Positions 6,257-20,089 of a stretch of DNA of 47,717 bases are shown here, piece after piece (position 1 is the first letter of the stretch; every line of letters begins with the position of its first letter). A program made the translations under genes and the position numbers. The stretch is taken from UHGV virus genome UHGV-0097968; one strand, written 5' to 3'. The DNA is from a virus. The notes below the pieces were generated by a model, which did no database searches, was not told the DNA's origin, and worked only from the letters and a program-made list of their open reading frames with translations.

Positions 6257-6306
6257 GTAAAAATAAAGGCAATGCATTGAAAACATTGCCTTTATTTTAT
6301 TTTTTG
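6257..6306. terminator. Bidirectional rho-independent terminator after the repressor gene
   Basis: 10-bp stem AAAGGCAATG/CATTGCCTTT with 9-nt loop, flanked by A-run on one side and T-run (TTTATTTTATTTTTT) on the other. Confidence 0.6.
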
Positions 6307-6710
6307 GTGGGGGTTAGTTTCTTTCTGGTAACCAGTAACTCTTCAAATAAACGATTAAAGTTTTCAACTTTATCTTCTAATTCAATTAGTTGCTTTTCTT
6401 TTTCTGACTCGGGTAATGAATCAAATAACTCTAACAATCTTTTTTGACGTGAATCCAGCTCTGTTGGTAATTCGTCTACCGGAGTTGGCGCCTGGTCTTC
6501 GTCACCAAAAAGCAGCCATGTGGCAGAACACTTAAGTGCATTGGCCAAAGCCAGCAAGTTCTGACCTTTTGGTTCATTTTGTCCGCTTTCCCATTTAAAA
6601 ACGCTCACACTCGATCTTCCAACCATATCAGCAAGCTGTTGTTGGGTTAGACCAAGCTGTTTGCGTCTTTGAGATAAACGGTCGCTAAGCATCAAATTCT
6701 TCATCCTCAT
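6297..6710 (-). CDS. cI-like repressor, XRE-family HTH only (no peptidase S24 domain)
   Basis: 137-aa ORF with N-terminal HTH (LTQQQLADMVGRSSVSVFKWESGQNEP), divergent from a Cro-like gene; C-terminal part short, acidic and coiled-coil-like. Confidence 0.85.
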   Translation of the reverse strand: MRMKNLMLSDRLSQRRKQLGLTQQQLADMVGRSSVSVFKWESGQNEPKGQNLLALANALKCSATWLLFGDEDQAPTPVDELPTELDSRQKRLLELFDSLPESEKEKQLIELEDKVENFNRLFEELLVTRKKLTPTKK

Positions 6711-7035: not shown

Positions 7036-7512
7036 ATGGAAAACCCAGAGGAATTACAAAAAGAGATTTTGACCTGGGCGGCAAGGGCAGGGCAGGAACT
7101 CGTCACGATTGAAATCTGCCGGGCCTGGTTCAGTCAGGGACGCAATGATGAGTTGAGACTACATGAATTTGAGGACGCGGACGGCAATGTGGACTGGAGA
7201 GCCATCAACAACAATCGGCAGAAAATCTTTCGCTGGTTACGTGGCGAGACAACGGCGGCGCGCCGAAAAACTCAGGTGCTGGCCAGTGTGATGAAAGCCG
7301 TGCTACCCGCAGAACGGCGGGCGCGTCTGGAGTCGCCGGGCGATCCCGTTTTGCTGGCAACGCTGGCGGCAAAAGAAGGGGGGGAAGCGATTAACGCTGT
7401 ACATCTCCACTTCGCGCCAGAGTTAACTATTCAGGAAATTGACGAAGCAATAGCGGCGCTGGTAGCGACGCGAGGGGCAGTGATAAGCACTGCGCAAGGC
7501 CACCATGCATGA
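7036..7512 (+). CDS. YdaT-like protein (cII-position regulatory protein)
   Basis: 158 aa; segment IFRWLRGETTAARRKTQVL resembles YdaT-family signature by recollection; follows cro. Confidence 0.5.
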   Translation: MENPEELQKEILTWAARAGQELVTIEICRAWFSQGRNDELRLHEFEDADGNVDWRAINNNRQKIFRWLRGETTAARRKTQVLASVMKAVLPAERRARLESPGDPVLLATLAAKEGGEAINAVHLHFAPELTIQEIDEAIAALVATRGAVISTAQGHHA

Positions 7513-11623: not shown

Positions 11624-12775
11624 ATGGCATGGACTGGATTTGGTGGTCAATGGAATAACGGTGTGCATTCTGGCGGTGATGATTCTGGCAGTATAGGCGG
11701 TGGGGGCATAAAACTTGACGGCAAAGGGAATCCTGTAGGTACTCGTGCGCCGACTGCTGAGGAGATCGCATCACAATGGAATAGCTTTGGAGGTAGTCAG
11801 ATTAAACCCAGTGATGTATCGAACATCAGACCGGATGGTGAAGGTACTTATCAGGCTAACATTGCAGGTAATTACCACGTTGTAAGTTCGCAGGGCGCGA
11901 ATACCCCATTTGCTTCGGAACGTAGCAACGTTGCGGCAGGTTTTAGTGGTGGTGTGGGACCAACGCCTGATGGAAGGGGTAACAATAGTGCACCCAGCAA
12001 TCCAAAGGCTGAGGCCGAGGCAAAGAAATGGATTGAAACAGTCAAGGCTGTTCGGGCTGGTAATATCCCCTACGGTTATGTTCTTAACGACGGCAAGGTA
12101 GGCGTAAACGTGCCTCAATATGTTGAACGCCGCAAAGGTCGTGGCGACACATATACCGTTCGGGGTAAAGATTTGTTTGTTGTTTCGCCTGAACTGACAA
12201 AAGCGTATCAGGATGGTCTTGCGGAACGTGCTGAGATTCTGGACGCCGTCAAATTTACGTCTGATTTCTATAAAGACCTTGCAGGTAAATTTGGACAGCA
12301 TAACGCGAACATCGCAAAGGAACTGGCGGAGGCTGCAAAAGGCAAGAAGATTCGTAACAGCAAAGATGCACTGGCGGCGGTGGATAAATTTAATAACCGA
12401 CTGAGTAAAAAGTATGGAGCCAAAGACCTTGAGGCAGTTGCCAGGGCTTTGGAATCGGTTAACCGGGATGCAATGGCGAAGAATTTGTCTAAATTTGGTA
12501 AGGCATTTGGTGTCGCAAGTTATGCTGTCGATGCTTACAATGTTCTTTACATTGAATTTCCGAAAGCTATTCGTACCAAAAACTATCGCCCAATGCTTGT
12601 TAAGTTGGAGGCAATTCTTCTTGGTGCTGATGCTGGTATTGTTGCTGCGTGGGCATTTAGTGCGCTTCTGGCAACGCCGATGGGTATTCTGACGTTTGCG
12701 CTTATAATGGCATTGCTAAGTGCGATGATTAATGAAAAACGCATTGAGGAACTGAATAAGTTCTTAGGGATTTAA
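11624..12775 (+). CDS. Colicin E1-family pore-forming bacteriocin (short, 383 aa; Gly-rich N-terminal domain, C-terminal channel-forming domain)
   Basis: Gly-rich N-terminus MAWTGFGGQWNNGVHSGGDDSGSIGGGG; C-terminal domain with GKKIRN, KFGKAFGVAS, RTKNYRPMLVKLEAILLGADAGIVAAWAFSALLATPMGILTFALIMALLSAMINEKRIEELNKFLGI (hydrophobic hairpin and terminal NKFxGI) matching my recollection of colicin E1/Ia-type pore domains; SOS box in promoter; GAAGGAAG RBS. Confidence 0.85.
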   Translation: MAWTGFGGQWNNGVHSGGDDSGSIGGGGIKLDGKGNPVGTRAPTAEEIASQWNSFGGSQIKPSDVSNIRPDGEGTYQANIAGNYHVVSSQGANTPFASERSNVAAGFSGGVGPTPDGRGNNSAPSNPKAEAEAKKWIETVKAVRAGNIPYGYVLNDGKVGVNVPQYVERRKGRGDTYTVRGKDLFVVSPELTKAYQDGLAERAEILDAVKFTSDFYKDLAGKFGQHNANIAKELAEAAKGKKIRNSKDALAAVDKFNNRLSKKYGAKDLEAVARALESVNRDAMAKNLSKFGKAFGVASYAVDAYNVLYIEFPKAIRTKNYRPMLVKLEAILLGADAGIVAAWAFSALLATPMGILTFALIMALLSAMINEKRIEELNKFLGI

Positions 12776-12795: not shown

Positions 12796-12818
12796 GGCCA
12801 CGTCATGTGGCCTTTTTT
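12796..12818 (+). terminator. Rho-independent terminator after the colicin-like gene
   Basis: Stem GGCCAC/GTGGCC, loop GTCAT, then T6; the immunity gene stop codon lies inside the loop on the other strand. Confidence 0.6.
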
Positions 12819-13147
12819 GACAATTGAATATAAATAATAGACAGGAGGCCAATGGGAATGGAAAAAATAAAAAGAATACCGTGGTATAAACCCATTACCC
12901 CGCTTTTTAAACAGGTGTCTGTCCACGCTCCTGTTACCCATGATTCGGATGTTGTATATTTGAGGACGATGTTTTCTACAGCTTTTTTTGCATATGGGAA
13001 CAAGAAACAACTAATAACAGAAAGCATAACCAAATAATCCCATATCCACAAATCGCCTTCAGCTATGGCCTGATGCCACCTGAAAACCGTCATGCCGAGA
13101 AATACGCATCCGTACAGGATGTTGCTCAAATAATATCGAAATGTCAT
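12803..13147 (-). CDS. Colicin E1-type immunity protein (3-TM inner-membrane protein), convergent with toxin gene
   Basis: 114 aa; MTFRYYLSNILYG..., FPYAKKAVENI..., SIPIGLLSIIYI resemble ImmE1 (MSLRYYIKNILFG..., CPYSKYAIEYI..., AIPFGLLGLF) by recollection; three hydrophobic segments; opposite-strand arrangement typical of pore-former immunity genes. Confidence 0.8.
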   Translation of the reverse strand: MTFRYYLSNILYGCVFLGMTVFRWHQAIAEGDLWIWDYLVMLSVISCFLFPYAKKAVENIVLKYTTSESWVTGAWTDTCLKSGVMGLYHGILFIFSIPIGLLSIIYIQLSKKAT

Positions 13148-13715: not shown

Positions 13716-14510
13716 ATGACAACTCAAGTATCCGCAGCAGCCATCTCCCCGATTATCCACAACCAACTTCCCGTCCTCACCACCGAATTACTCGCGAACC
13801 TCTATGGCACAGAGCCGGATTACATTCGTAAAAACCATAACCGGAACTCAGAGCGATTCGTGGTCGGGAAGCATTACTTTTTGCTCGAAGGTGAGGAGTT
13901 GCGCGAATTTAAGCACAGCATGTCTTTAAGACCTCCTGTGAAAATCGCCAGAAATGTCCGCTCTCTCATCCTCTGGACAGAACGCGGCGCAGCTCGCCAT
14001 GCCAAAATGCTGGAAACAGAACAGGCCTGGGAAGTTTTCGAAAAGCTGGAAGATTGTTATTTTAGCCAGCGTCCAGAGAGGCGGAGTACAACTACCGATG
14101 ACCGTACTCCCTTACGTGATGCCGTTAATATGCTGGTCGGTAAGAAAGGCATGATGTATCCCGATGCCTACACCATGATTCATCAACGCTTCGCCGTCTC
14201 TCACATAGAACAACTGTCACAGACGCAAATGTTAGAGGCGATTGAATACATCCACTGCCTGCTACTCGATGAAAATCAGCCAACCATTCCGGATTTTTCT
14301 TTTATCACCACTATCAAAAATGGAAAAGTGACAAGGATGCGCCATGTTGCCAAAGGCGAACATCTGATGACCTTTGACGCTTTCAAAGAGATCGCTGAGC
14401 GGGCAGGGTATCTGGTGATCCACAGCGACAACCTGCGAAGTATGACGCTGGATAAATTGATGCTAATGGGGGAAAAGTCGGCTGTATCCGTTGCTGATTC
14501 AGCATTTTGA
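13716..14510 (+). CDS. Putative antirepressor (ORF6N-like N-terminal domain)
   Basis: 264 aa; N-terminal region ISPIIHNQLPVLTTELLANLYGTEPDYIRKNHNRNSERFVVGKHYFLLEGEELREF resembles ORF6N/Ant-type domain by recollection; RBS AAAAGGAAA. Confidence 0.6.
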   Translation: MTTQVSAAAISPIIHNQLPVLTTELLANLYGTEPDYIRKNHNRNSERFVVGKHYFLLEGEELREFKHSMSLRPPVKIARNVRSLILWTERGAARHAKMLETEQAWEVFEKLEDCYFSQRPERRSTTTDDRTPLRDAVNMLVGKKGMMYPDAYTMIHQRFAVSHIEQLSQTQMLEAIEYIHCLLLDENQPTIPDFSFITTIKNGKVTRMRHVAKGEHLMTFDAFKEIAERAGYLVIHSDNLRSMTLDKLMLMGEKSAVSVADSAF

Positions 14511-14541
14511 CAGGTTGAATGTTTGGCGCGGTTATACTCTA

Positions 14542-14618
14542 TTTGCGCTTAAAAAGGTATTTAGTCACAACCAGCACGAGGCCGAATACTCTGTCAAAGT
14601 ACCGCCCATGTAAAACTG
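14542..14618 (-). pseudogene. Frameshifted 3' fragment homologous to the C-terminal end of the 18140-18745 membrane protein gene
   Basis: 77 bp with about 90% identity by eye to 18144-18220; minus-strand translation starts MGGTLTE then loses frame through a 1-bp deletion. Confidence 0.5.
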
Positions 14619-14687
14619 TAACGTATGTACTTGATGACTAAGCTGGCACCAGGTTAACACCAGGCGCCAGCTTGAAGGAAACTTCAG

Positions 14688-15611
14688 TTATTGGTTTCTG
14701 AGGAAAGCGATTCTTGAAAGGGTCATTTGCGTCTGGCAGTCGAGCATTTTCTTGACTTCAGCATCTGTTCCCTGCATTGAAACTTTACCGCACATAGCAT
14801 CCTTAGTTTTGATCCACTGACGCTGAGAAGGCAGCAAATCTTTTTTCTTCGCCGGGGTTAACTTGCTCCAGACGGTACTCAAATCAGAGTCGGCATTCGC
14901 AAATGCCATTCGGGACTGATCAAGGCTGTCAGCTTTTTGTGGCTGAAGTTGTGCCTGTCTCTCTATTTGCTTCTCCGCCTCATACTTAGCCTGTTCCTGC
15001 GCCCTGAGTTGCACCTGTTGTTCCGCTTCAATTTGGCTCTGTTGGGCATCCTTAGCCTGCTGGATTTTCTGCTGCTCAACGATCGGGTTGATAATAGAAA
15101 GTGATGTCAGTAAAGCGGCGCCCACTGATATCGGATTATCAGAAGAGGTTTTTACAAAAACGTTTTTCTGATCGTCGGTCGCCTGCACGGTGTAGGTGAT
15201 ACGTTTGGAAAAGGCGTTTGCGTTGTTCTCCAAAAACAGGCTTTCCATTTGCTTGTCGAGATTACGATTAAAATTCTTTCTGTAAGCATCTGAAAGCTGG
15301 ACGTACTCGTTCGCAGGTAGAGTCATCGTCACGGTCCCTTCACAAGTTTTCATTGTGCTGCCCGTGTCACTTGATGTTGTGGAGATTTCAGAGACGGCTA
15401 GTTTGATCTTGTCCAGTGTGCTTCGTTTGGTCTGATTAGTGACATCAGGGTATTTATCGACCTGTTCAGAGAGTCCTTCATAAGCAGATTTTTTTAATAA
15501 ATCCATGAGAGCTGATTGGGTCATTTCCGAAGAACAACCGATCTCATCTTTTTTGTTATCACAGCCTGTAAGGGCAATGGCGAGTAAGAGTACTGAGTAT
15601 TTTAATCTCAT
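14688..15611 (-). CDS. Lipoprotein with C-terminal DUF1311/LprI-like domain
   Basis: 307 aa; signal peptide with lipobox LTGC; Gln-rich coiled-coil middle; C-terminal motif WSKLTPAKKKDLLPSQRQWIKTKDAMC...C typical of DUF1311 by recollection. Confidence 0.75.
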   Translation of the reverse strand: MRLKYSVLLLAIALTGCDNKKDEIGCSSEMTQSALMDLLKKSAYEGLSEQVDKYPDVTNQTKRSTLDKIKLAVSEISTTSSDTGSTMKTCEGTVTMTLPANEYVQLSDAYRKNFNRNLDKQMESLFLENNANAFSKRITYTVQATDDQKNVFVKTSSDNPISVGAALLTSLSIINPIVEQQKIQQAKDAQQSQIEAEQQVQLRAQEQAKYEAEKQIERQAQLQPQKADSLDQSRMAFANADSDLSTVWSKLTPAKKKDLLPSQRQWIKTKDAMCGKVSMQGTDAEVKKMLDCQTQMTLSRIAFLRNQ

Positions 15612-16639: not shown

Positions 16640-17305
16640 ATGAAAGCCGACAACTTAAGAATTATAGAGAATGGCAAATATGTTTTCGATATGTTCTTGG
16701 ATACTGGTGAATTTTACTATACAAGTCATGCCTTTGACACGAGAGAAGATGCAAAAAGCTGGATGGAAGAATGGCAGATTTGGGCAAATAATGTATCGAG
16801 TGGGAAAGTAAGTAGTATTTATTATATTTTACAAGTGCCTGATACTTGGGCCGGTTCTTCAGATAAAAATAACCCTTACTCGGGACTTTATGTGAAAATA
16901 GGGCGTTCCAATAATGTGCTAAAAAGGTTGTCTAACCTGCAGACAGGTGCATTTGGTCAATTAATATTACACGCTTTGGAACCTGGTGGTTCAGAAAAAG
17001 AAAACTATCTTCATGAAAAATTTAGCAACGAAAGACGTCAAGGTGAATGGTTTGTTTGTACTAAGGAACTTACCAAGCATATATTTACAACATGGTTTAA
17101 AAACAAAATGCTCCCACCAGAACATCAAATAAAAATAATGCAGCTCGCAGAAAGAATAGGTATTTATTCGCATGTTCATACACTAATGGGGGGGAAGCCA
17201 GACTTAGTAAACCCATCTATTAGTGAACCTTGGGAATGCGAAAAATATGTTTTGGTTGATATGATTTATAGCTCTTTAGCAAAGCAAGTTAATCATAAAA
17301 AATAA
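16640..17305 (+). CDS. T5orf172 (GIY-YIG-like) domain protein with unassigned N-terminal domain
   Basis: 221 aa; GLYVKIGRSNNVLKRLSNLQTG ... ENYLHEKFSNERRQGEWF matches the T5orf172/MUG113 signature (KIG..., LQTG, LH..F...R..GEWF) by recollection; AT-rich region. Confidence 0.7.
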   Translation: MKADNLRIIENGKYVFDMFLDTGEFYYTSHAFDTREDAKSWMEEWQIWANNVSSGKVSSIYYILQVPDTWAGSSDKNNPYSGLYVKIGRSNNVLKRLSNLQTGAFGQLILHALEPGGSEKENYLHEKFSNERRQGEWFVCTKELTKHIFTTWFKNKMLPPEHQIKIMQLAERIGIYSHVHTLMGGKPDLVNPSISEPWECEKYVLVDMIYSSLAKQVNHKK

Positions 17306-18139: not shown

Positions 18140-18745
18140 TTACTTGCGTTTAAAAAGGTATTTTGTCACGACCAGCACGAGGCCGAATACCTCTGTCAAA
18201 GTACCGCCCATGTACAACTGGAGCGTTAAGTCTTTAAATACAAGCCATTCAGCACCAGTGGCAAAAAATACACCATTCATTATCAAAAGCTGGCAAGCAA
18301 GGATAATAAGGAACCATTTGCCATAGCGTTTTTTTAGATCGATTTCAGCTTCAAAATCTTTGTTGTTGAGTTGTTTGCGCTCATGCTCAGTATCAAGTGA
18401 ATTCACCTGTTTCACAGATGTGAACTCGGTCAAGATTTTACTCTCAGTACGGGTGACTTGTTGAGAGGGGGTAGGAATTGGAATTCTTTTGATTGACGCA
18501 GCTACAGCCATTTTGCGAGCTTCGGCAGCTCTTTTTCTGGCTATTCCGTGAATACGGGCAGACGGTTTTTTTGGAGCGTGCGAAACCTTTGTCTGAGGTG
18601 AAGTTTCGTCAGGAGACTGAACCGGAGTTTCATCCTCCTCCGGCTCAACCTCTTCTGCTAACTGACGGTGTAGGTTGAGGGAATCCTTCAGTCGGCGTGC
18701 AACTTCCTGTTTGAAACGGCTGTTAAAATCGTCATCCGATGGCAT
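18140..18745 (-). CDS. Membrane protein (disordered charged N-terminal region, two C-terminal TM helices), co-operonic with ImmA-like peptidase
   Basis: 201 aa; hydrophobic segments WFLIILACQLLIMNGVFFATGA and GTLTEVFGLVLVVTKYL; 9-bp gap to upstream peptidase gene; 3' end duplicated at 14542-14618. Confidence 0.65.
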   Translation of the reverse strand: MPSDDDFNSRFKQEVARRLKDSLNLHRQLAEEVEPEEDETPVQSPDETSPQTKVSHAPKKPSARIHGIARKRAAEARKMAVAASIKRIPIPTPSQQVTRTESKILTEFTSVKQVNSLDTEHERKQLNNKDFEAEIDLKKRYGKWFLIILACQLLIMNGVFFATGAEWLVFKDLTLQLYMGGTLTEVFGLVLVVTKYLFKRK

Positions 18746-18754
18746 TCTAAAGCG

Positions 18755-19243
18755 TTACCCCAACCTCAAGTTCTTTAAACGATAAGTCATCGCATCGTCA
18801 GATACGCCAAAATGATGCGCCATTATATAACTTGGTTGGCCGTCAGCGTGCAGTTTTCTGACCTCATCTACCGGCATCAGAAGTTCTGCTGCGAACTTGT
18901 TCGCAAAAATTTCATCAGGATGCGTTCCGGCGCTTGCGGTTTCGCCACGTAAATCAACGTACTCATATTCATCGCTATGCGATGCTTGCCGGGCGATGTA
19001 ATGCCCCAACTCATGCCCACATGAAAAACGTTGACGAACTTTGTTGTCATCACTGTTTAGAAAGATCGCTGGATCTTGATCTTTTTGTTTAATCAGTGCG
19101 CCAGAAACTTTCCCAGGAAGATCGGTAATAAAAACATCTAATCCCATGTCGTGAGCAATTTTCGCTGGATCAACAGGGAAACCACGCCCGCACCAGAACG
19201 TGTCCAGCACTCGCCGGGCGTGCTCTCTTGGGTTGGTAGCCAT
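18755..19243 (-). CDS. ImmA/IrrE-family zinc metallopeptidase (COG2856-like)
   Basis: 162 aa; HEXXH motif in RQRFSCGHELGHYIA; downstream EIFANKFAAELLMPVDEV and FGVSDDAMTYRLKNL typical of ImmA/IrrE. Confidence 0.8.
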   Translation of the reverse strand: MATNPREHARRVLDTFWCGRGFPVDPAKIAHDMGLDVFITDLPGKVSGALIKQKDQDPAIFLNSDDNKVRQRFSCGHELGHYIARQASHSDEYEYVDLRGETASAGTHPDEIFANKFAAELLMPVDEVRKLHADGQPSYIMAHHFGVSDDAMTYRLKNLRLG

Positions 19244-19810
19244 AGCTCCTCCAGTTACTGCATTACGATTATTGGTTGAAATATAGACAACATGTTCCGT
19301 ACCACATTCCTGTAAAAGTGCAAATTCTGCACTTCTGGTACGATATTAACTGTTAGTAGTAAAGTCTTCCAGATAAATCACTTTAAAATCTTGTGAATTG
19401 CTTGCTTTTTACGCTGCATTGTGGATGACTCAATGTTTCCAGTAAAAACATACAGGATAATCATGAGATTAGTGGTTTTTTAGGCATCCATATGTTTCTG
19501 AAAAAAATGGATGCCACAAGCGCCTGGATGAGCACAGGAAGGGAAGGCTATTACATGTGTGATTTATTACATCTGTAAAAAAATACAGATCTAACTTGAT
19601 CTTTTCATTGAAGTCTTTCTTAGTCCTGGATAGGATCTGGAGGTTGCGAAGTTTTTAGAGTCGCATCAAAGGGAAAGCCCTGACAGTTGGAGCTGTCAGG
19701 GCCATACAAAAACATCGGTTAATGCTTTCGTTGAGATCTCGGTTTGGGAGATTACCTCAACCGGGATCCCGTGTAAAGCATTCATTGCCGAAAATGATAT
19801 AGGTCAATGA

Positions 19811-20089
19811 ATGAAACACATCTGTAAAAAGTCACATCGTCACGACAGTATGTTTGATGTTCTTTCTGCAAATCAGGGTAACGTTGGGCGGCACAAGTGT
19901 TGTGGATGTGCCTATGATAAAGGTATGTGGCATGCATTAATCGGCGTTCCGCGTGCGGTTGATGACTCTGTTTTAGGTGATTTACCCGAAAGCCAGGCTG
20001 GGCATGTCCGTCATAAAGATGCTTTTGAAGCATATAATATGGGCTATGACCATGGGATGCATAAAAAAGCCTATGGTATGGCCTCATAA
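19811..20089 (+). CDS. Hypothetical Cys/His-rich small protein
   Basis: 92-aa ORF followed by strong terminator; the overlapping minus-strand ORF has implausible His/Tyr-rich composition. Confidence 0.45.
   Translation: MKHICKKSHRHDSMFDVLSANQGNVGRHKCCGCAYDKGMWHALIGVPRAVDDSVLGDLPESQAGHVRHKDAFEAYNMGYDHGMHKKAYGMAS

Follow-up and report, generated by a model that had tools for sequence, protein, structure and literature searches.

An M78 peptidase and membrane-protein gene pair of an enterobacterial prophage, a probable member of the RosmerTA toxin–antitoxin systems

Analysis of the virus genome UHGV-0097968 (47,717 nucleotides, the whole of which is called here the window) concerned two adjacent genes at positions 18140-19243, encoding a peptidase of the M78 (ImmA/IrrE) family and a small membrane protein. 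The sequence-only reading of this DNA had described a HEXXH peptidase at 18755-19243 lying 9 nt before a 201-aa protein, and both open reading frames (ORFs) were found as described, on the minus strand. Comparison with characterised proteins indicates that the pair is probably a RosmerTA-type toxin–antitoxin (TA) or abortive-infection cassette, carried by the prophage as a moron. The cassette is composed of the following elements:

18755..19243, minus strand: M78 peptidase gene (rmrA-like), 162 aa, presumed antitoxin
18746..18754, minus strand: intergenic spacer, 9 nt
18140..18745, minus strand: membrane-protein gene (rmrT_D5-like), 201 aa, inner membrane, presumed pore-forming, depolarising toxin
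19246..19252, minus strand: Shine-Dalgarno sequence GGAGGAG of the peptidase gene, from an alignment of 330 nt upstream in 9 contexts

The TAA stop codon of the peptidase gene occupies 18755-18757 and the ATG of the membrane-protein gene is at 18745, with both ORFs in a common reading frame. The 9-nt spacer implies an operon with translational coupling, and no promoter-like or terminator-like site was found on the minus strand at the gene junction.

A RosmerTA pair has been described for Gordonia phage Kita, consisting of the M78 antitoxin RmrA_D25 and the C-terminal-membrane toxin RmrT_D5 (Ernits et al. 2023, PMC10440598), which correspond to YP_009301393.1 (Kita gp32) and YP_009301394.1 (gp33), respectively (PMC10440598 supplement). 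In E. coli the Kita toxin shuts down macromolecular synthesis and causes rapid depolarisation, permeabilisation and pore formation; the full-length toxin is toxic alone, the peptidase neutralises it partly, and the pair protects against the BASEL phages Bas54 and Bas59 only (PMC10440598). The earlier statement that no described system has such a pairing is thereby overturned, since Kita gp32/gp33 have the same architecture, are homologous to the window proteins and have been characterised (PMC10440598).

In a tblastn search of 50,697 phage genomes with the window peptidase, the Kita-type Gordonia phages were the best matches after an E. coli phage, and the peptidase aligns with Kita gp32 over 157 residues at 43% identity (E 7e-41). 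The membrane protein gave no tblastn match in the 50,697 phage records, so the Kita link came via the peptidase. The profile of the membrane-protein family, in turn, matched Kita gp33 with 26.9 bits (E 1.6e-9, seven candidates) and gave no match to the proteins downstream of M78 in Che9c and a P2-like phage; alignment of the family with gp33 by hhalign returned a probability of 92% (E 6e-7) over 77 columns, covering the juxtamembrane segment and both helices. For the reciprocal search, a hidden Markov model (HMM) of gp33 and two actinobacterial relatives was run against 7,377 ORF translations from the collected loci. About 60 members of the window toxin family ranked first (best E 5e-9, window copy 1e-5), and unrelated ORFs scored no better than E ~2.

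The Kita genes stand in the same order and overlap by 4 nt, and the Kita peptidase produces the PADLOC pattern seen for the window peptidase: capP as the best match and a partial match to RmrA. Because both proteins are homologous to the Kita pair, with identical gene order and the same PADLOC pattern, the window pair can be assigned with fair confidence to the RmrA_D25/RmrT_D5 kind of RosmerTA as a proteobacterial member. The genes form an adjacent, co-oriented unit, the M78 active site is intact, and both components have their counterpart in the validated Kita system. A helix-turn-helix (HTH) domain fused to the peptidase, of XRE type in the original RmrA and many D25 members, is absent; Kita RmrA_D25 lacks it too, which makes the HTH a frequent rather than a defining feature of RosmerTA. 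Among the roles put forward from the sequence, TA or abortive infection fits best.

The peptidase matches the Pfam family Peptidase_M78 (IrrE N-terminal-like, PF06114) with E 1.4e-17, and two sites build its catalytic centre:

19001..19015, minus strand: HELGH zinc-binding/catalytic motif, residues 77-81
18911-18913, minus strand: third zinc ligand E111, within the segment EIFANKFAAELLMP

Residues H77, E78, H81 and E111 are each kept in at least 95% of 118 aligned homologues, which makes the window enzyme almost certainly active. Its family comprises proteins of ~160 aa with 45-99% identity. The best PADLOC match, capP (1.6e-25), covers profile positions 3-151 of 242 only, and within the RmrA profiles (357-400 positions) the peptidase part alone (~145-300) was matched. 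The AlphaFold2 model of the peptidase (pLDDT 90.9) has CapP (7t5t) and IrrE (3dte, IrrE/PprI) as the nearest solved folds; the structural match spans just a part of these larger proteins, with target TM-scores of ~0.4, and CapP was the only PDB sequence match. Neither sequence nor profiles revealed an N-terminal HTH, a C-terminal GAF domain or a cysteine-switch loop in the 162-aa protein. DNA-damage sensing of the CapP kind was rejected, the GAF domain and the cysteine switch being absent.

The proposal that the two genes form a self-contained module, to be checked in the neighbourhoods of homologues, was borne out. Among the non-redundant membrane-protein homologues whose upstream sequence reached at least 520 nt (n=41), 38 had the peptidase family encoded directly upstream on the same strand, an association far beyond chance. 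The peptidase comes first, with gaps from about -33 to +61 nt and many overlaps of 1 or 4 nt, and the pairing persists down to 45-55% peptidase identity and across differing insertion sites. The peptidase had been termed an orphan; it does lack an adjacent XRE partner, and its real partner is the membrane protein.

The two families stood side by side in all the loci inspected, from Pseudoalteromonas, Pectobacterium, E. coli, Klebsiella, Serratia, Leclercia, Buttiauxella, Silvimonas (a betaproteobacterium) and many metagenomic contigs. The cassette as a whole occurs in Gamma- and Betaproteobacteria, on chromosomes, in prophages and in P4-like islands. A word-indexed search returned 48 membrane-protein clusters, all from Enterobacterales, and an exhaustive profile search 716 clusters at E<=1e-3, with 188 remaining at E<=1e-10; lengths of 100-180 aa predominate. 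Of 5,426 complete E. coli genomes, 451 (~8%) contain the region, with at least 80% of the query covered in 430; a scan of genome contigs in a collection with one genome per species gave 3 loci.

The exceptions among the 41 are two homologues with a dCTP deaminase upstream and one with an unknown 102-aa protein, which indicates that the upstream partner is swappable. The deaminase (204 aa, Pfam DCD/dUTPase) overlaps the toxin homologue by 4 nt in the loci L048 (691-1748), L065 (579-1627) and L066 (376-1424), the 102-aa protein is the upstream partner in L057, and PADLOC recognises neither of them. In another protein (P0220, 130 aa) an M78-like N-terminus (…PIDPVTLGRELGIKIIDVKLP) runs straight into the juxtamembrane and hairpin core of the toxin, apparently as a result of a deletion that fused both genes.

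The membrane protein has no match in Pfam, NCBIfam or PADLOC and belongs only to phrog_5346 (E 6e-129), a group of unknown function. The following parts were distinguished:

18653..18736, minus strand: N-terminal helix, residues 4-31, conserved in the Enterobacterales clade only
18389..18652, minus strand: variable, charged, disordered linker, residues 32-119
18317..18388, minus strand: conserved cytoplasmic juxtamembrane segment, residues about 120-143, ...LNNxDFEAEIxLKKxYGK
18251..18316, minus strand: transmembrane (TM) helix 1, residues ~144-165, from hydropathy, alignment A2 and the AlphaFold2 helix 120-167
18155..18229, minus strand: TM helix 2, residues ~173-197, LYMGGTLTEVFGLVLVVTKYLF

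A charged, disordered N-terminal region followed by two C-terminal TM helices had already been recognised in the protein, and this layout is upheld by the AlphaFold2 model, by hydropathy (for TM1) and by the homologues. The model, of low confidence (mean pLDDT 57), places helices at 4-31, 120-167 and 173-199 and leaves 32-119 unstructured. Hydropathy reveals one clear hydrophobic segment, TM1; the second membrane helix is predicted from the low-confidence model and from homologues that score as two-TM proteins. The K/R-rich flanks suggest an N-in/C-in topology, with the short loop between TM1 and TM2 (residues 166-172) presumed periplasmic.

Conservation is concentrated at the C-terminal side, where the core consensus of the family, LKxxYAxWFxxILxxQLxxMNxVFxxxGxGxLxFxxxxLxLYMGGTLAEVFGxVLVITRYLF, covers the juxtamembrane segment and the hairpin. 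In the juxtamembrane segment L126, N128, E134, I135, L137, K138 and Y141 are invariant in alignment A1, and the LKxxYA motif is kept in alignment A2. The polar residues Q152 and N157 of TM1 are invariant in A2. Nowhere is the family more conserved than in TM2, where G181 is invariant and T182 and E185 almost so. The variability of the linker gives the family its length range of ~100-240 aa: the stretch before the juxtamembrane motif has a family median of 63 aa, against 136 aa in the window copy, and many members have just ~10-40 residues there. As the sole strongly conserved cytoplasmic part, the juxtamembrane segment is most likely the region contacted or cleaved by the peptidase. The N-terminal helix, in which L19, L23 and R27 are invariant in A1, was considered as a family-wide docking motif and rejected, its profile having no significant matches outside Enterobacterales.

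Close alleles of the cassette differ unevenly. Between the window (18140-19243) and the prophage locus L007 (7503-8606) the peptidase gene differs at 3 of 489 nt (1 aa) and the toxin gene at 43 of 606 nt (18 aa), with the divergence jumping at the gene boundary. The toxin changes concentrate in two places, the disordered linker and the TM1-TM2 loop (6 within residues 161-171). Such a jump could stem from recombination, or from the presumed periplasmic loop evolving fast.

Taken together with the Kita phenotypes, these features allow a mode of action to be proposed. The two genes would be co-translated from a single transcript. The membrane protein would insert in N-in/C-in orientation and oligomerise via the conserved hairpin with its polar residues Q152, N157, T182 and E185, and the oligomers would form pores through which the inner membrane becomes depolarised and permeabilised. 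In the lysogen the M78 peptidase would keep the membrane protein harmless. It would most likely do so by direct action on the toxin, at its cytoplasmic juxtamembrane or N-terminal part, and possibly by cleavage; with both the juxtamembrane segment and the catalytic residues conserved, direct action on the juxtamembrane region (residues about 117-143) is the most economical model. Infection by certain phages would upset the balance, the membrane would collapse and the infection would be aborted. That the window proteins behave like the Kita pair is presumed, and so are the mode of neutralisation and the trigger. Some other RosmerTA systems have been reported to make ClpX or ClpP essential, a hint that proteolysis matters, but the toxins of those systems are of other families.

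A more specific version of this model is possible, though we regard it as doubtful. The M78 enzyme would be a proteolytic antitoxin that continuously cleaves the toxin at a specific site in the juxtamembrane or N-terminal region, instead of binding it stoichiometrically or repressing it, and the trigger would consist in the protease being inhibited, titrated or not resupplied. If true, a proteolytic antitoxin would represent a distinct mode of toxin control, and together with the dCTP-deaminase variants it would make the two-TM hairpin a swappable membrane effector for several cytoplasmic enzymes.

The same parts could be arranged with the opposite sign, so that the protease activates the pore by a gasdermin-like logic: the N-terminal region would auto-inhibit the hairpin, and on a phage cue the peptidase would cut the linker and free it. 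A disordered, variable linker next to a catalytic site so strictly conserved (at least 95%), and the unusually long N-terminal region of the window toxin, are in line with such a scheme. It is nevertheless improbable, given that the full-length Kita toxin is toxic alone and that the peptidase lowers its toxicity (PMC10440598), and given the many family members with ~10-40 residues before the juxtamembrane motif.

Phage proteins such as HK97 gp15 and T4 Imm block DNA entry of incoming phages. A role of this kind, superinfection exclusion, would have the two-TM protein stop the entry of incoming phage DNA and the peptidase serve as a factor of its maturation or turnover. It would suit a small inner-membrane moron encoded by a prophage, in which differences between close alleles accumulate in the presumed periplasmic loop (residues 161-171). 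The homologue, however, makes pores and halts growth (PMC10440598), the toxin family is also found in non-phage contexts, and obligatory coupling to a cytoplasmic protease is no feature of known exclusion proteins; we regard exclusion as very unlikely.

Several points weigh against the TA and abortive-infection assignment itself. Toxicity, neutralisation and defence are known from the Kita homologue alone and from no proteobacterial member, and the Kita toxin is just partly neutralised, with a narrow defence in E. coli (PMC10440598). The link between the window toxin and gp33 is remote (25% identity over 77 columns, mostly TM), and similar TM composition can look like homology; the clean separation in the reciprocal search speaks against this, although it does not prove the relationship. 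Three membrane homologues are partnered by something other than M78. The unusually long N-terminal region of the window toxin could bring altered regulation. Classical TA autoregulation is not evident, because the peptidase has no HTH and no operator is conserved. PADLOC, being without a toxin model, would not call the system.

Upstream of the peptidase gene, conservation is limited to GGAGG-N-ATG in the 330 nt aligned from 9 insertion contexts; as the sole conserved upstream element, the Shine-Dalgarno sequence marks the 5' edge of the mobile unit. No operator or promoter was conserved in this alignment, where the ribosome-binding site (RBS) alone is kept. A promoter scan of the minus strand upstream of the peptidase found none, an Rfam search of the same stretch gave no match, and the 570-nt gap contains no ORF of at least 20 aa with an obvious HTH. 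A terminator-like hairpin lies at 19676-19703. The long non-coding stretch 19244-19830 also carries an exact 13-nt direct repeat (ACATCTGTAAAAA) at 19569 and 19818, a palindrome with 16-nt arms at 19483-19515 and another palindrome (AGTGCAgaattTGCACT) ~80-95 nt 5' of the peptidase start codon; the repeat and the palindromes are not kept in other insertion contexts.

The window represents a prophage integrated beside tRNA-Ser/mtfA, whose early genes are lambdoid and whose tail is of myovirus type. It is almost identical to a prophage of E. coli GF43 (L001), and Escherichia whittamii Sa2BVA5 carries the pair at 100% identity. The pair sits in an accessory stretch with replication genes on one side and NinB/Q on the other, and is transcribed against the neighbouring lytic genes; the opposite orientation and the hairpin at 19676-19703 fit an independently expressed lysogenic moron.

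No HTH gene adjoins the pair in the window, according to the ORF and domain scan. The only cI-like repressor had been put about 12 kb away, in agreement with the nearest XRE-type repressor found, an HTH_3-only protein of 137 aa at 6297-6710 (minus strand), ~12.5 kb from the pair. This repressor lacks the S24 self-cleavage domain; a YdaT-like gene (7036-7512, plus strand) follows the cro-side genes, and the accessory region contains an ORF6N-domain gene of antirepressor type (13716-14510, plus strand), which in E. coli GF43 is a pseudogene.

A remote induction protease had been among the roles suggested for the peptidase. On this reading it would cleave the prophage repressor (6297-6710) as ImmA acts on ImmR, with the membrane protein as a tether or sensor that controls it. 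Repressor cleavage is the canonical role of ImmA, IrrE and CapP, a repressor made of an HTH alone without S24 domain needs some external inducer, and a related peptidase is annotated as 'antirepressor' in Pseudoalteromonas phage ACA1. Against this, the cassette stands without a nearby prophage repressor in three loci (L030, L031, L032) and beside a LexA-like self-cleaving repressor in another (L016), the peptidase is coupled to the membrane-protein gene and never to an XRE gene, the window already has the ORF6N antirepressor-type gene, and the Kita homologue acts as an antitoxin (PMC10440598). Remote induction is therefore very unlikely, and the antitoxin role in a RosmerTA-type cassette is preferred.

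The cassette occupies very different sites. It lies in a nin-type region in the window, beside an integrase at a prophage edge (L026), between a Q-type antiterminator and a holin (L029), in P4-like primase/AlpA/integrase islands (L030, L031) and at a chromosomal site without phage genes in its vicinity (L032), and other TA genes often adjoin it. The RBS and the two ORFs alone are conserved between contexts, and the cassette moves between sites as a unit. Its placement in prophage accessory regions and P4-like islands agrees with a possible role in phage defence. The position in L029 suggested a holin or lysis role, which was rejected: the window prophage has its own holin and endolysin, and the cassette occurs also outside phages.

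A trace of such exchange is present in the window:

14540..14624, minus strand: relic of the 3' end of a second rmrT, 86 nt, 91% identical to 18141-18226, frameshifted

The relic lies just downstream of a gene of the LprI family (14688-15611). Intact mini-ORFs of 23 codons (MGGTLTEVFGLVLVVVKYLFKRK) are located at similar places in other prophages (L007, L010, L019-L022). These relics look like scars of cassette replacement, and their presence in the window and in other prophages points to repeated exchange.

A pure addiction module, in which a TA pair stabilises the prophage or its accessory region and has no part in defence, would be served by the same architecture; RosmerTA antitoxin genes are essential in transposon sequencing (Tn-seq) of Pectobacteriaceae, and the defence conferred by the Kita pair is narrow (PMC10440598). 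RosmerTA systems, the Kita pair included, do protect against phages, however, and the relic at 14540-14624 means that the cassette can be lost or replaced. We hold addiction alone to be scarcely probable. Both it and superinfection exclusion fit the phenotype of the homologue less well than a RosmerTA-type TA or abortive-infection cassette does.

Further genes of the window were recorded. The gene at 11624-12775 (plus strand) encodes 383 aa with a colicin pore-forming domain (PF01024, E 2e-45), and the adjoining gene at 12803-13147 (minus strand) encodes an immunity protein of colicin E1 type (PF03526, E 6e-9). From these domains, the two genes look like a cassette for a pore-forming bacteriocin and its immunity protein, carried by the prophage; it recalls the 'telocins' described for telomere phages of Klebsiella (PMC12042878), and the annotation of the E. 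coli GF43 prophage (L001) names no colicin or immunity gene in the matching region. A 221-aa T5orf172/MUG113 protein (GIY-YIG-like), encoded at 16640-17305 (plus strand) in the accessory stretch of the pair, has weak PADLOC matches to the candidate system PDC-S57.

Standalone M78 genes of ~160 aa in other temperate phages are likewise followed by a small protein with 1-2 TM helices and a charged N-terminal region. Such loci were collected from Mycobacterium phage Che9c (L073), a P2-like phage (NC_070905, L074), a Helicobacter prophage (L075), Burkholderia phage Carl1 (L076), Pseudoalteromonas phage ACA1 (L077) and Salmonella phage MET_P1_103_31 (L078). None of the membrane partners in L073-L078 matches the window toxin profile, and those of the P2-like, MET and ACA1 phages have a motif in common. 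An M78 peptidase with a small membrane protein thus seems to be a combination that recurs, with membrane partners of several unrelated kinds.

The cassette has been annotated only as 'ImmA/IrrE peptidase + hypothetical protein', and the Kita link gives its genes a testable function. A native E. coli member is also a place to ask how a protease neutralises a membrane toxin and what the trigger is. A RosmerTA kind with M78 and a membrane toxin was already known, and no new category of system is described here. What is new is the size and breadth of the toxin family, its frequency in E. coli, the PADLOC blind spot for the toxin, the partner swap with dCTP deaminase, and the recurrence of standalone M78 with unrelated membrane proteins, mycobacterial phages included.

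Of the known systems, the Kita RosmerTA resembles the window pair in the standalone, HTH-less M78 followed by a small protein with a C-terminal two-TM hairpin, in overlapping or adjacent genes, and in carriage by a temperate phage. The differences relate to the host (actinobacterial for Kita, enterobacterial here) and to the toxin, which has 119 aa in Kita and 201 aa here, where it includes a disordered insert of considerable length and an N-terminal helix specific to the clade, with similarity limited to the juxtamembrane segment and the hairpin. Originally, RosmerTA denoted the combination of a Zn-peptidase antitoxin and a toxin whose function was unknown (Millman et al. 2022). The systems of that study are likewise two-gene, TA-type defence systems with a Zn-peptidase antitoxin and a variable toxin family; in contrast to the window pair, their RmrA of ~360-400 aa has an N-terminal XRE HTH and their toxins belong to other families.

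The protease–repressor switches CapP/CapH, IrrE/DdrO and ImmA/ImmR share the M78 fold and catalytic motif. The M78 catalytic domain that marks this group is present in the window; the adjacent XRE/HTH repressor is absent. In those switches the neighbouring gene encodes an HTH substrate, whereas the conserved partner here is a membrane protein. CapP and IrrE differ further by a C-terminal GAF domain forming a groove that binds single-stranded DNA, which was not encountered in the window peptidase. PanT_D11/PanA (Ernits et al. 2023) is alike in that its small, membrane-depolarising toxin has the TM region at the C-terminus, while the cytoplasmic antitoxin contacts the unstructured N-terminus. 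It is unlike the window pair in that the antitoxin is a Panacea domain and no protease, and the toxin family is unrelated. Modelling of the Kita peptidase–toxin complex by AlphaFold did not succeed (pDockQ 0.05; PMC10440598). Finally, PD-lambda-2 (Vassallo et al. 2022) is another E. coli defence system with an ImmA/IrrE peptidase domain; it is built from three genes, its peptidase carries a fused Xre HTH and has toxicity of its own, and in place of the membrane protein found beside the window peptidase it has HigB-like and P4-antitoxin-like partners.

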